Positions 15,001 to 33,000 of a stretch of DNA of 46,158 nt are shown in pieces. The position numbers are program-made. This DNA is from Candidatus Zapsychrus exili (GTDB lineage Bacteria; Omnitrophota; Gorgyraeia; Zapsychrales; Zapsychraceae): NCBI GenBank assembly GCA_030765585.1, contig JAVCCJ010000069.1:1-46158 (forward strand), read 5' to 3'. Within the stretch, counting starts at the first letter, position 1, and each line of letters starts with the position of its first letter.

Positions 15001-18000
15001 TTTAATAACCCTATACTGGATTAGAACCCAAACATTCTTTAATTTTTGCAACCAAATCAACGAGATTAACAGGCTTAACAAAATACGCCTTTACTCCTTC
15101 TAATTTAAAAACATCTTCCATTGTTTCATTTGCTGTCAGCATAATAATTGGCGTTGTTTCAACGCCTTCTATGCGCTTTAACTCTCCTACAAATTCATAA
15201 CCATTCATATTTAGCATTTGAACATCTAGAACAATTAAGTCGGGTTTGTACTCTTTTACTTGTTTTAAACCCTCTTCTCCATCAGAAGCCACAACTGTAT
15301 CGTACCCTTTACTTACAAGACCAAACTTAACTAATGTTATTCCGATTTCATCATCGTCTATAATCAATATTTTATGTGCCATGTTTTGTTCCTTTTTAAA
15401 ATTAGGTTGATTTAAGTTATAAGTTAGTTACAATAAAATATACGCAATAATTTAAACAGAGGAAATTATGAGTAACAGTAACTTTTTATCAAGAATTCGC
15501 CGATTAGACAACATGATAGCAAGATGGGTTATGCGTCATTTCTACTTTATATTTTTTCAAGTTATCCTAGTTATAATATTCGTTTTCTGGCTATCTAATA
15601 CAGTACAAATCATTGATATCAATTTCCAAATATCAAAAAATAATCTACTAGAAAAAATACTTCTTACTCAATCTATTAATACATCTATAATTGTAATACT
15701 TTTACTTCTCAATTCTTTCTGGATGCTTTATATTTTAGGAGGAATACAACGCCTAAGAAACTTACTAAGAGATATAAGCTACAACATAGGCAAACTTCGC
15801 AATAAAAACTTCTAAACCGTATTTCCTTAAAAATACTCGTGATACAACTCTTTAAACTTTTCTATAACCTTCCTCTTAAAATCTAAATTGTAATCATCTA
15901 AGGCAGAATCATATCCATAATTTCTCTTAAACCCTATATATGCAAGACCAACTGCCTGCGCAAAAAAGGAAGAATTGACGTGTTGTTTTCCTTTTGAAAT
16001 ATTAATTTTACCTAATTTAGTTGGCAAATTAACTTCTTTCCCTATTCTTTCAACTAGACCTGGCAATAGAGAGCCACCTCCCACCATAACTATCTCACTA
16101 TTTATTTGATCAAACAGTCCGGAATTCTTTATAGAATCTTGAATCGTTTCAATTAAACATTGAGATTCTGGCTCAATAGCTTGATATATTTCTTTTTTCT
16201 TAATAGGCACATAAGAATTTTCTCTTTTTATGAGTATCTCCTCATCTCTTCGCTGATCAGAGTCTGTAACAACTGCATGTGCTTTCTTTATGGATTCAGA
16301 TAAATCAAAAGGTAAATTTATTTTCCTAGATATGCCTTCGGTAAAATTGTTTCCACCGAAAGAAATTTTATTTACATATCTAATAATACCTTCCTTAAAT
16401 ACTAGAATGCTTGTTACTGTTGATCCTATATCAACTAAAACACACCCAGCTAATTTTTGCTCTTCATCAAGCGCTACATCAGAAGCTACATAACTAGAAT
16501 ACATAAGATTTACAACATCATATCCCGCGTGATGAACCGATCTTGTAATATTGCGAACTCTGTTTGCACTTGATAATATCATTAAAGAAGATGCAGAAAG
16601 TTTTCTGCCATAAAGTCCAATTGGATTAAGAGCAAGATTGTCGTCATCAATTTTATATGCCTGAGGAAGATCGTGTAAAATTTCTTCTTCCATTTTTGTA
16701 CCCAACAATTTATTTTGATCTGAAACTCTTTTAATATCTCTAGATGTAATTATCTTACTCCCCTTATCAATTAAAGGTATTGCTGTCGTAGCTTGCCTTA
16801 CGTCAATAAGATCGCCATTAACTCCAAGCTGTATTTCTTTTAATTTAACTTTTATTTTTTTAGATAATGAGGAAAGTATGGAATGCACACACTCAGAAAG
16901 CTCTCCTAAGTCTTGAACTGAGGCGTTCTTAAAGCCATGAGTATCGCTTTCTTGAACATCTATAATTTCAATGTCTCGAGGATTATTTACTCTCAATACT
17001 GCTGCTTTAATCTTTTTGGACCCAAGGTCAAGCCCACAAAATATTTTCTCTCTTAAGATTTTCTTTATCATAATATTTTTATTTCTTCCCCAAAATAGGG
17101 TCTTTAAACCTAAGGTCTATATATTTAACACGCTTTAAATCTATATGTTCTCTAGTAAGCATTATCTTAAGCAAGTTCATTTTTGATAAAATTTTATCTT
17201 GATCTAGAATAATCTTTAACTTGTTTGTAAAATAAAAACTTATCTCCGATAAATTCTCAAGATTAATCTTTGATATTTTATAAGAAGATAACTTTTTATT
17301 ATACGCAAAAAATTCTGCAATCCTTAACGCTATCTGAATTTGCTTATATTCAATCGTTTTCCCTACAGAAAAATCTCCTTTAAGATTTATGCCCACTGCT
17401 TCTGGCAACCTACTGCTTCTTCTATTGTTAATAGAAATAACAAAACCATTTTTATCTAAAGAAATGTACTCTTTATTTGTTTTTGTCTGAATTAAAGGTA
17501 ACCTTTCTTTAGCTTGTAACGATATTTGATTTGGAAAATGTTTTACAATGTTAAACTCTGCTACTTTAGGATATTTTCTTAAAAGCATTCTCTCTAATCT
17601 ATTTAAATCTACAGAAAAGATATCTTTTCCTATCGTTTTCCTTAAATCCCCCTTATTAATAAATCGAAGAGAAGGATCAATAACAATTGTTTTAACTTTA
17701 AAATGTTTTGAGTTTTTAGTAAAGTTCCTCACGCCCTTATAAGCAAAAAACACTACTCCTGCTACAAAGGATAAGAGTAAAACTCCGATAATCATAAATT
17801 TAATTACCGACGACGGTATTGCTAGTTTTCTTTTTCTTTTTAGCATAAGTAAATTCCATTAGTTTAATACATAATTGATTAAAGTTTAATCCAAATTCCT
17901 TTGCCGCCTTAGGCAAAAGACTTGTTGAAGTAAAACCTGGTATAGTATTTACCTCGAGCACATAACCTATATTATCTTTAGATAATATAAAGTCTACTCT

Positions 18001-30000: not shown

Positions 30001-33000
30001 CTAATTTTATAGAAAAAGCAATAAGACAAGTAATAATAAAAATAAAAATTAGACTAAATCTAAGTACATATTTTCTTATTTGCACTTTATCTGTTCTTTG
30101 ATTAAGGTTGATTAAAGAATTTACTTACTTACGCTTGCTAGATTTCTTTGAATTTAGCGATAACAAATTTAAAAAAGCATTAGCTCTTTGAACAAGCTCG
30201 GGTCGCTTTTTAGATTTATTTTTTGAGCGAAATTCTTTTAGAGTCGGAATACGAACAATGTCTTCAGGATCAACAAAATGCATATCTGAATCTTCAGAAA
30301 GCATCTTAATTCCCAAATTATTGGCCGACTTTAAGGTAAGAATATTATATGTTACATTTCCATTTTCTTCAATAAGCTTTCTAATTTGCTTTTCTTTGTC
30401 TTTTCCGCGATATGCAAGGTCTGTAATCTTCATCTGCATATGAGTATATACTAGAGCCAACATAGTTATCACACCTATGACTTTTAATAGTCTAACTAAT
30501 CTCATAAAAAGCTAAATCCTCTCCGCTACTCTAAATCTTGCGCTACGTGCACGCAGGTTTTCATTTACTTCCTTGTCAGTTGGTCTTAAAGGCTTCTTTG
30601 TTATTATTTTTGCTTTTAAATCCCCAGCTAAGACCTTAAATTTATTCTTAACAATTTTATCCTCAAGAGAATGAAATGCGATAATGCCTATACGACCACC
30701 TGGATTTAAGAAATCAAAACACTTATCCAATACTATCTCTAGTGATTCTAATTCTCTGTTTACTGCAATTCTAAAAGCCTGAACCGTTCTTGTTGCTGGA
30801 TGTATCTTATATCTTGCCTTCATGCGAGGGATAGCTCTTAGGATAATCTTGCTCAACTGTTTTGTGGTTGAAATGGGTTCCTCCGCCCGCATCAAAACTA
30901 TTTTCTGAGCTATCCTCTTGTGCCATTGTTCTTGACCGAAATCATTAAGTATTTGAGATATCTCTTGTTCAGATAAAGAATTAATCAAATCAAAAGCAGA
31001 TATCTTACTTCCCTGATCCATTCTCATATCTATTGGACCATTATGTCTTATACTAAAACCTCTCTCTGCATTGTCTAATTGTAGGCTTGAAAGCCCCAAA
31101 TCAAGCAATATTCCGTTCGAGAGACTTTATTTCTAAATTGTTTAATACTTTATCTATATTCTTAAAATTGTCCTGTACTAAATCACACCGACAATCATAC
31201 TGTTCTAAATCTTTTTTTGCCAACTCTAAAGCTTGCTTATCACGATCTATCCCTATCAATCTTCCGTCAGATCCAAGAATCTTTGCTATTTCTTTTGAAT
31301 GTCCAGCTAAACCCAATGTTCCATCTAAAAATATTGATCCAGGTTTTAAATTTAAATATTCAATTACCTCACCCAACATAACGGGAGTATGAATATTTTG
31401 TGTTCCTTGCATCTTAAGATCGTGCCCTTCTGATATTAATTAATTTACCTTTTATAAAATTGCTACTTTAAAACATTTACTAGCTTAAAGATCGAGCATA
31501 TTTTCTGATATTTCTTCGAAAGAACCACTTGAATTAGAATAAAATTCATTCCAATCTTTCTTGTTCCAAATTTCAATTCTATTTGATACGCCAATAATAA
31601 CTGTTTCTCTTTTGATATTTGCGTAGTCTTTTAAATACTGCGGAATAATAAATCTTCCCTGCTTATCAGGTGATATATCTGCGGCACCAGAGAAAAACAT
31701 ACGATTAAAATTTCTAGACTGTTGTTTTGTAAACGAAAGGTTTTTAAACTTCTGCTCTTGAATTCTCCACTCGGACTCACTAAACATAAAAATACATTTA
31801 TCTAAGCCTCTTGTTAAAAAGAATTTCTCAACTCCGTACTCTTTGCATACTTCACGGACTTTCGACGGCAGGATTAGTCTTGCTTTATTATCAATATTAT
31901 GTTGGTATTCACCGTAGAACATCTAAGAATCCTTATAATAAAGTTTTATTAAAATAATGATACAATTTAGACAAAAGTGCGAATTAGTTAGCACACCACT
32001 TTCCACCACTTTGCCCCACTATTGTCCTCAGTATACATATAACAATGGGCTATGTCAATATATAACTAACAATATTTTATCTATATTATTGATACACAAC
32101 GACTTGTACATAAAATGCGGATTAAATACTACATATTGTATGTTTTAAGTAGTGTTTGGGAGGCTATTTTAGGAGGGGCCTAATTTTCTTCTCATCTCTT
32201 TTTATTTGATCGATGAGACGCTTTAAAGTGGGAAATGTTTTTTCTTCTCTAATCTTTTTATAAAATTCTATTACAACGCTTTTTCCATATATATTTTCCT
32301 TAAAATCAAAAATATTTACTTCAATGTTTACATCATTCTTATTTTTATTAAAAAATGGCCTTATGCCTACATTTGCCATTCCATTATGCTTATTCTTATC
32401 TTTCAAAATTTTAACAGCATAGACTCCGGCTGGAGGATAAATCTTGTTTTTGGGACAAACATTTATTGTTGGATATCCTATCTTCTTTCCACGTCCTGCC
32501 CCTTTTACAACTTTTCCCATAAAAGAAACTGGTCTTCCCAAAAACTTACTTGCCTGATCTAGCTTTCCATCTGCAATTAAACTTCGAATATCAGTACTAC
32601 TTATCTTCAATTCATGTTTTTTATCAAAACAAATTGGATGCACAGTATCTACCTTAAACCCATACTCACTTCCCGCTTCTTTAAAATATTCTAATGTACC
32701 TTTTCTTTTTCCTCCAAATCTAAAATCATCTCCAACAAAGACATCTACAGGTTTTATTTTTTTGACTAGATATCTATCAACAAACTTCTCTGGAGTTAAA
32801 TGAGCAAACGCCTTTGTAAAAGAAATAACTATTGCTACATCTATTCCAAGTTGTTCTATAATCTTTAATCTATAATCTAAAGAAATCATTAACTTTAATT
32901 TCTTATTTGGATGCAATACCTGCATTGGATGAGGAGAAAATGTCATAAGCATGCTCGTGCCTTTTATTCTCTTCGCTTTATTTACTGCTTTTTTAATCAA

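Follow-up and report, generated by a model that had tools for sequence, protein, structure and literature searches.

Comparison of genome sequences supports the loss of FtsZ throughout the phylum Omnitrophota, with a true FtsA, FtsQ, FtsW, FtsI and wall synthesis all kept. We suggest, with a probability of roughly one half, that FtsA persists in these bacteria as the membrane adaptor of an FtsN-FtsA-FtsQLB-FtsWI activation module and that FtsK and/or MreB put this module in place, as in Chlamydia. Retention of FtsA without FtsZ, which the survey's finding had presented as new, was already on record: Pende 2021 tabulates FtsA as present and FtsZ as absent for 3 Omnitrophota genomes, and other papers disagree.

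The window, a stretch of 46,158 nucleotides from Candidatus Zapsychrus exili, holds the cluster of cell-division and wall genes (dcw) in the order and at the coordinates first described, from mraZ to ftsQ-ftsA and entirely on the minus strand. It begins with mraZ (31485..31922; PF02381) and rsmH, or mraW (30512..31412), the latter split into two frames by a break near 31110, with PF01795 positions 3-92 and 97-309 falling on two ORFs; this frameshift is probably an assembly error. The 126-aa gene that follows (30125..30505) has an N-terminal hydrophobic stretch and matches no Pfam family over cut-off. It occupies the ftsL position, relatives likewise carry an ORF of 95-165 aa between rsmH and ftsI, and by position only we assign it to FtsL. 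Next come ftsI, encoding a class B PBP (28415..30085; PF00905, PF03717), murE, murF, mraY and murD (23058..28257; Pfam, the ligase names being assigned by position), ftsW (21957..23054; TIGR02614 at 415.2 against a cut-off of 337.5) and murG (20946..21950). The true murG start lies at 21950, and for the stop at its codon 8 (position 21929) an independent run gives glycine; recoding of TGA as glycine was rejected, since TGA terminates 150 of 986 long frames and at least 100 open codons lie beyond it in only 3. A gene for a peptidase MA superfamily protein (20164..20949; PF13485) is inserted between murG and murC, as in 4 of 20 related regions, and is followed by murC and ddl (17800..20191; Pfam), ftsQ (17079..17846; PF08478 and PF03799 over cut-off) and ftsA (15827..17071). 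The cluster had been called complete; its order stands, but murB is found neither between murC and ddl nor elsewhere in it.

The cluster ends with ddl-ftsQ-ftsA in all 20 related regions, and the slot after ftsA is closed. In Ca. Zapsychrus exili the would-be place of ftsZ holds a hydrophobic 115-aa ORF of no known family on the plus strand (15468..15815), convergent on ftsA. It is not the orphan it was taken for: homologues lie behind ftsA in two genomes of the same order (G291 and G091), and at this position it was seen in Zapsychrales only. As an FtsZ substitute it was rejected, being present there in 1 of 20 regions and one further locus.

Searches of the whole genome bear out the absence of FtsZ. 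Neither PF00091 nor PF12327 has a match, while the controls match in 13 of 14 genomes, and three home-made profiles, run without filtering against all six frames, did not find FtsZ (best E 0.54-2.4); in the control for that search, a profile built without FtsZ recovered 4 of 4 held-out FtsZ sequences at E 1e-24 to 9e-22. Across the phylum, scanned in two overlapping samples of 401 genomes each, mostly MAGs, the profile search placed FtsZ over cut-off in none of 401. The wider claim that the whole tubulin family is missing holds for FtsZ but not absolutely, because TubZ-like genes occur in 2 of 401 genomes and ftsA-ftsZ fragments in 2 of 401 of the class sample. The TubZ-like genes lie outside the dcw cluster, and given this position and their rarity they were rejected as an FtsZ substitute. 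The fragments sit on contigs of 1,150 and 1,630 bases, beside the genomes' own ftsA, in assemblies with 4-5% contamination, and the ftsA on them is a second, canonical copy. We regard them as apparently foreign on the grounds of their short contigs, the extra ftsA and the contamination levels, and not of G+C, which lies close to that of the hosts (0.41 against 0.44; 0.40 against 0.41) and gives no separation.

These fragments and TubZ-like genes, together with the predominance of MAGs, might be taken to mean that FtsZ, or a different polymer ending in an FtsZ-like tail, exists but has diverged beyond detection or is missing from the assemblies. One FtsA family, f36, retains a canonical FtsZ site, and PMC12283558 places Omnitrophota among the phyla with highly conserved dcw genes. 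We nevertheless consider a hidden FtsZ very improbable. TubZ-like proteins scoring about 50 bits are picked up by the same searches that miss FtsZ; the single-contig genomes G143 and G149 give no FtsZ match; no FtsZ-like frame occurs in 119 loci; and none of 1,919 ORFs of Ca. Zapsychrus exili has an FtsZ-tail-like C-terminus of note. ZapA, MinC and SepF are each found in 0 of 101 genomes, weak evidence in that many phyla are without them. The case for phylum-wide loss is strengthened by the empty ftsZ slot and by decay of the FtsZ-binding site of FtsA.

The FtsA of Ca. Zapsychrus exili (414 aa) is genuine. It scores 220.8 bits with TIGR01174 (cut-off 175.85) and 48.6 with PF02491 (cut-off 25.4), and it has the SHS2 insert, subdomains 1A, 1C, 2A and 2B, and a C-terminal amphipathic helix. 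Its AlphaFold model (pLDDT 92.1) has FtsA structures as top matches, with a Foldseek TM of 0.83 to 7Q6I. A model for an adaptor role is PilM-PilN of type IV pili, in which the tail of a bitopic partner lies in the 1A-1C cleft of an FtsA-like fold (PMC7613929 section 6); unlike PilM, however, the Ca. Zapsychrus exili protein scores as FtsA (220.8 against 45.8 bits), is encoded in the dcw cluster, next to ftsQ, and carries the C-terminal helix. This helix, residues 398-413 of the model, has a hydrophobic moment of 1.72 (1.40 in E. coli), and the phylum mean is 1.42 as against 0.76 for shuffled sequences.

FtsA has diverged quickly, with a mean identity of 22%, compared with 23% for FtsQ and 46.5% for FtsW, and the TIGR01174 cut-off is reached in only 160 of 301 genomes. 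Such divergence also fits weak selection, and together with domain loss it might indicate that FtsA is decaying as a relic, or has been redeployed away from division, perhaps to side-wall synthesis alongside MreB, and that division is Chlamydia-like without it; the dcw genes kept in Planctopirus are non-essential (PMC12283558 section 13). This explanation seems unlikely to us, however. An intact ftsA frame follows ftsQ in each of the 20 regions, and among the 19 genomes with the weakest scores at 90% completeness or more FtsA was found in 16, one of the three misses being a contig end. Moreover, the loss is selective for 2B, and a C-terminal Tyr-Phe is nearly fixed (97 of 104 sequences).

How FtsA has been remodelled can be seen in 104 Omnitrophota sequences from 52 families, short sequences being sampled on purpose, set against 82 controls. 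Of these, 77 belong to just two groups, the Fibrobacterota-like and the Bacteroidota-like hits; PVC sisters are not among them, and only 4 were seen with an adjacent ftsZ. A genome scan for outgroup loci yielded only 7. We take Arg300 (E. coli numbering) to be a residue of the FtsZ-tail site in subdomain 2B. Its role in FtsA is reportedly the subject of Pichoff and Lutkenhaus 2007. All 82 controls have arginine at this position, as against 6 of 104 Omnitrophota FtsAs; it has been lost in the other 98, among them that of Ca. Zapsychrus exili, where glutamate replaces it. The review passage on the FtsZ site speaks only of 'conserved residues in the 2B subdomain'.

The subdomain as a whole is affected. 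It is reduced to at most 35 residues in 20 of the 104 sequences, from 6 families, and in 0 of 82 controls. In the 45 families that retain it, 2B has the lowest identity of any subdomain (19.7%, against 25.3% for 1C), whereas in 9 diverse controls it is the second-best conserved (37.3%, against 33.7% for 1C). The membrane helix and subdomain 1C are retained across the remodelled proteins, 1C measuring at least 81 residues in 20 of 20 FtsAs without 2B, and such a protein is still predicted to be a folded FtsA (pLDDT 91.5; Foldseek ranks FtsA first). Class membership (f63 as opposed to f10, f11, f12, f18 and f47) and different junction lengths suggest that 2B may have been lost several times independently; a single origin is not rejected by AU tests on seven joined dcw proteins from 20 genomes (p 0.164) or on FtsA without 2B (60 rows, 5 long-branch rows dropped; p 0.556). 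Family f36 (4 genomes) speaks against decay of a site no longer needed: Arg300, Glu303 and the phosphate-2 motif DxGG are kept there, even though a yggS-like gene follows ftsA in 2 of 4 and FtsZ was found in 0 of 7 genomes of its order.

Subdomain 2B carries the FtsZ site, one filament contact and part of the ATP pocket (PMC8998562 Fig. 7). The nucleotide site has changed as well: DxGG is found in 13 of 104 Omnitrophota FtsAs and 78 of 82 controls, and all eight scored residues in 25 of 104 and again 78 of 82. Ca. Zapsychrus exili, whose phosphate-2 loop is altered, keeps eight of eight but not Gly213.

These observations bear on the proposal, made in the survey's finding, that FtsA itself organises the septum. 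FtsA, triggered by an FtsN-like tail, would assemble into antiparallel double filaments, curved and able to sense curvature as MreB does, which would steer FtsWI and replace the Z ring. FtsA-FtsN double filaments make lateral contacts via 1C and favour negative curvature (PMC7613929); Omnitrophota have retained 1C together with the membrane helix, and most of 2B survives in 84 of 104 sequences. The lengthwise contact, however, is between 2A and 2B (PMC8998562, PMC7613929); 2B is deleted in the six families, and 79 of 104 sequences are short of one or more of the eight residues scored at the nucleotide site. A load-bearing polymer would also be expected to be as well conserved as MreB (501-533 bits in 59 of 61 genomes), quite unlike FtsA. 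The missing 2B and incomplete nucleotide sites leave an FtsA polymer unsupported as a general rule, and we regard a filament-based division as doubtful; only lineages that still have 2B, such as that of Ca. Zapsychrus exili, could have a filament in place of the Z ring. We are similarly sceptical of an actin-only divisome in which tail-switched FtsA, as curvature-sensing oligomers or double filaments held mainly via 1C, would steer FtsWI without a tubulin and, in six families, with neither 2B nor a full ATP site.

The adaptor reading includes a partner of the FtsN type. The candidate is a bitopic SPOR protein whose tail bears an FtsN-like motif; it has matches in 185 of 201 genomes, part of them through its SPOR domain only. 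In Ca. Zapsychrus exili this protein (G000:C30:19053-19661; PF05036 at 36.7, cut-off 21) is laid out like FtsN, with a short tail in the cytoplasm, a single membrane helix, a linker and a SPOR domain at the C-terminus, an arrangement found in 55 sequences. The tail motif, Q-x-E/D-hydrophobic-F, is present in 44 of 51 aligned SPOR proteins, including those of families whose FtsA lacks 2B, and in only 2 of 1,918 ORFs of Ca. Zapsychrus exili; it was found at the N-termini of 0 of 20 FtsQ, 0 of 12 FtsI and 0 of 19 FtsW proteins. The motif is short and also resembles beta-clamp-binding motifs, although none of the 51 aligned tails has the exact QL[SD]LF form; no plasmid match was found. Residues 3-6 of E. 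coli FtsN read Q-R-D-Y, and a model places D5 and Y6 in the FtsA 1A-1C cleft (PMC7613929 section 6).

As first described, MreB and PBP2 are present: MreB is over cut-off in 60 of 61 genomes, and PBP2, distinct from the ftsI product, is encoded in the mreB operon. FtsK is found in 61 of 61 genomes, and FtsB, as well as FtsI plus PBP2, in 5 of 5. A candidate RodZ, over cut-off for HTH_25 and under it for RodZ_C, is encoded directly behind ftsK. The set FtsK, MreB, RodZ, PBP2 and PBP3 of the Chlamydia-type divisome is represented, although FtsK and MreB are common among bacteria and their presence alone is no proof of a division role.

With the canonical E. coli divisome (FtsZ-FtsA-FtsN-FtsQLB-FtsWI), Omnitrophota share the FtsA fold, 1C insert and membrane helix (structures 7Q6D, 7Q6F, 7Q6I and 4A2A), the cluster order from mraZ to ftsA and a bitopic SPOR protein whose tail has an acidic-aromatic motif; they differ in the missing FtsZ, ZapA, MinC, SepF and FtsX (the last in 0 of 5) and in the loss of Arg300 and, in six families, of 2B. 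Chlamydia trachomatis, also without FtsZ, has a hybrid divisome with MreB, PBP2 and PBP3 that starts its assembly with FtsK (PMC11975371). Both groups keep peptidoglycan synthesis, FtsK, FtsQ, FtsB, FtsI, FtsW, MreB and PBP2 (PMC11975371, PMC10591338). FtsA, however, is counted in 0% of 194 Chlamydia genomes (PMC10591338), whereas Omnitrophota keep it behind ftsQ in a largely intact dcw cluster, along with the FtsN-like SPOR protein. Planctomycetota, of the same superphylum, are likewise without FtsZ and keep FtsK, but all of them have lost ftsB and most have lost ftsA (PMC12673574), and in P. limnophila the dcw genes except ftsK are non-essential (PMC12283558).

For the adaptor reading, we envisage that ftsZ was lost early in Omnitrophota by a clean deletion from the cluster end, while a peptidoglycan septum would still be made by FtsW-FtsI. 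FtsA would then have been retained for its second job, the activation of septal synthesis: anchored to the membrane through the C-terminal helix, it would receive the cytoplasmic tail of the SPOR protein in its 1A-1C cleft and help to recruit or switch on FtsQLB-FtsWI. The FtsZ-binding surface on 2B, now superfluous, would decay and, in six families, be deleted. The septum site would most likely be marked by FtsK, and MreB-RodZ would shape the septal ring, as in Chlamydia.

Omnitrophota number over 700 species and have complete wall synthesis (preprint 10.64898/2026.06.07.730766). With FtsZ gone and the late divisome and FtsA kept, these walled, uncultured bacteria would be a natural test of wall division without a Z ring, in which evolution may have split the two jobs of FtsA, anchoring FtsZ and activating septal synthesis. 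Neither expression nor reconstitution of a natural FtsA without 2B and of the SPOR-protein tail peptide requires the organism in culture, so that what FtsZ adds beyond FtsA-FtsN-FtsWI becomes a testable question.

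Re-reading the window confirms the gene order of the survey's finding: the dcw cluster runs on the minus strand as mraZ-rsmH-(126 aa)-ftsI-murE-murF-mraY-murD-ftsW-murG-(peptidase MA)-murC-ddl-ftsQ-ftsA, with no ftsZ after ftsA and a convergent 115-aa open reading frame (ORF) beyond it. The same ending, ddl-ftsQ-ftsA, closes the cluster in 20 of 20 fetched regions, and in four of them ftsA is followed directly by genes that we take to be yggS- or proC-like, the kind that comes after ftsZ in other bacteria. No FtsZ-like frame occurs across 119 ftsA loci, with at least 500 bases downstream available in 93 of 103. 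In the window's own genome (G000), the run from yggS-proC to the mreB block lies on contig C39.

Three genes in this genome are broken. Codon 8 of murG is a stop (position 21929) where a contig from another study's run has glycine, and since TGA is an ordinary stop codon in this genome, the murG stop is most likely an assembly error. Together with a frameshift in rsmH at about 31110 and a break in a presumably lgt-like gene (G000:C39:15374-16131), it points to base errors in a low-depth assembly. The cluster does not include murB, and the murC-ddl interval (17800-20191) is without it; an ORF of ~300 aa, presumably MurB, separates murC and ddl in 10 of 20 related regions, and three related regions have a MurC of 758-772 aa that is probably a fusion. 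The peptidase MA gene (20164-20949) recurs in four of 20 related regions. In another class (loci L086-L091), murE opens the cluster and ftsI lies elsewhere in the genome. Outside the cluster, the minus strand at 3436-9519 encodes a 2,027-aa protein in which a phosphofructokinase-like part and one like the RNA polymerase alpha-CTD are joined to a glucose-6-phosphate isomerase part.

Profile searches of the own genome with PF00091 and PF12327 gave 0 matches each, the controls ringing in 13 of 14. An unfiltered search of its 27,053 six-frame segments with profiles of 103 TubZ-like proteins, of four FtsZ and of both combined also found no FtsZ (best E 2.4, 1.8 and 0.54, respectively); the TubZ-like-protein profile recovers four of four held-out FtsZ sequences at E 1e-24 to 9e-22. 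Across 401 phylum genomes, TIGR00065 gave nothing over its cut-off and 26 matches at E up to 0.1, 24 of them at 16 bits or less; the other two, in genomes G358 and G397, are full-length TubZ-like proteins whose genes sit among unrelated genes. These loci (L001:1318-2517 and L002:1492-2775) encode lysine-rich N-termini, and the TubZ-like family is large, with 1,033 representatives at E 0.001. In 401 genomes of the window's class, a sample overlapping the phylum one, PF00091 matched G358, G442 and G435, the last two through short contigs (1,150 and 1,630 bases) that carry fragments of ftsA-ftsZ. Each of these two genomes (5% and 4% contamination) also holds, at another place, an ftsA of the Omnitrophota type that no ftsZ follows, and we read the fragments as foreign to their hosts, a point on which G+C content gives no decision. 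The TubZ-like proteins and the fragments are exceptions to the survey's statement that the sampled genomes hold no tubulin-family sequence. ZapA, MinC and SepF profiles matched 0 of 101 each, which says little about FtsZ loss because many phyla lack these proteins. We consider it very probable that FtsZ has been lost and highly improbable that it is present but hidden.

That the window gene encodes FtsA is well founded: it scores 220.8 with TIGR01174 (equivalog cut-off 175.85), carries the SHS2 (1C) insert, and its predicted structure (pLDDT 92.1) matches FtsA structures ahead of PilM or MreB. At E 1e-5, TIGR01174 has hits in 299 of 301 genomes, but only 160 exceed the cut-off, so the larger count takes in other actin folds. 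The FtsA-specific PF02491 matched 28 of 30 genomes chosen for spread and low scores. A phylum FtsA profile matched 23 of 30 of the weakest-scoring genomes, but in four of them (all below 90% complete) the match is weak and partial and probably comes from MreB or PilM. Among the weakest at 90% completeness or more it matches 16 of 19; in G238 ftsA is severed by a contig end, but G274, where a Ddl match is missing too, and G263 are without a match.

Our alignment sets 104 Omnitrophota FtsAs from 52 families against 82 controls: E. coli, four genome loci, 17 Bacteroidota-like hits and 60 Fibrobacterota-like hits out of 120. These controls are clustered and without a PVC sister, which counts against our reading. 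Arginine at E. coli position 300, which we take to be a residue of the FtsZ-tail site in 2B, is found in 6 of 104 Omnitrophota sequences versus 82 of 82 controls, and in four solved FtsAs as well; the window FtsA has glutamate there and 17 of the 104 have lysine. The phosphate-2 DxGG motif is kept in 13 of 104 versus 78 of 82, and all eight scored nucleotide-site residues in 25 of 104 (window FtsA included) versus 78 of 82. The C-terminal Tyr-Phe on an amphipathic helix is present in 97 of 104. Subdomain 2B (span 237-306, 70 residues) is reduced to at most 35 residues in 20 of 104 sequences, which is not a phylum frequency because short sequences were fetched on purpose. They belong to six families, f10, f11, f12, f18 and f47 in the window's class and f63 in another; tree tests do not reject a single origin of the loss, and 1C is full-length in all 20. 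In the model of a 353-aa 2B-less FtsA (pLDDT 91.5), both helices and the hairpin that make up 2B are missing, and FtsA is still its first match. In two members of family f15 (L114 and L115), 2B carries insertions of ~30-40 residues, and in the others it is shortened to 46-57. Counting against decay is f36 (four genomes: L027, L163, L164, L165), the only family seen to keep Arg300, Glu303 and DxGG throughout, a canonical FtsZ site despite the absence of FtsZ from seven of seven genomes of its order.

According to a review, 2B binds FtsZ, contributes to the ATP pocket and forms one of two oligomer contacts (2A-2B), and 1C recruits FtsN (PMC8998562). FtsA-FtsN double filaments, a refined form of the survey's idea that FtsA itself organises the septum, could stand in for the Z ring in lineages with intact 2B, but this is not easily carried over to the six families that lack 2B, and we regard such filaments as unlikely. 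That FtsA is a relic, or active outside division, would fit its low mean identity (22%, versus 46.5% for FtsW; FtsQ 23%), and seems to us similarly doubtful.

A candidate FtsN-like partner of FtsA, suggested by its sequence, lies outside the window (G000:C30:19053-19661, or L168:2054-2662; minus strand). This bitopic SPOR protein is 202 aa long; ~40 residues form its cytoplasmic tail, followed by a single membrane helix and a linker. Of 201 genomes, 185 give a match to it, in some cases through the SPOR domain alone. Among the 51 sequences aligned out of 55 (one different SPOR protein and three over-long starts left out), the motif Q-x-E/D-hydrophobic-F occurs in 44 and its acidic residue in all 51; just 2 of 1,918 own-genome ORFs have the motif within their first 30 residues, and it occurs in 2B-less families of both classes. 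The motif is short and also resembles a beta-clamp-binding motif, which offers a rival reading of the tail. In favour of the FtsN-like reading, residues 3-6 of E. coli FtsN are Q-R-D-Y, and D5 and Y6 have been modelled within the FtsA 1A-1C cleft (PMC7613929).

MreB and FtsK exceed their cut-offs in 60 and 61 of 61 genomes; FtsB, SPOR domains, and FtsI with PBP2 are each present in five of five, and the FtsX profile matched none of five. In the own genome a rodZ-like gene directly follows ftsK, and the mreB-mreC-mreD-pbp2-rodA block is intact. In G008, G012, G027, G049, G061 and G065, ftsA and mreB share a strand, with mreB ~10-12 kb further behind. As the most likely reading we suggest, with a probability of about one half, that FtsA is a membrane adaptor that would couple the FtsN-like SPOR protein to FtsQLB-FtsWI and that FtsK together with MreB-RodZ would place the septum, as is reported for Chlamydia (PMC11975371).

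The absence of FtsZ is already published, though disputed and little noticed. Pende 2021 states that Omnitrophica lack FtsZ, and five rows of its supplement file 4 give FtsZ for OLB16 only and FtsA without FtsZ in three of the other four (PMC8178401); a 2016 review assigns FtsZ to the phylum on OLB16 alone (PMC5147048), a lineage later judged misclassified (PMC10066038); and another paper groups Omnitrophota with phyla of conserved dcw genes and notes a few ftsA exceptions among FtsZ-less PVC (PMC12283558). The string 'fts' does not occur in the available text of PMC10066038 or of a 2026 preprint on 176 closed genomes (10.64898/2026.06.07.730766), and a literature search, with Megrian 2022 outside its reach, returned nothing on 2B loss or the tail motif. 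The finding in the window is real, a wall-based division that is FtsZ-less, and what is added here is the scale of the absence, the selective decay of FtsA and a candidate FtsN-like partner.
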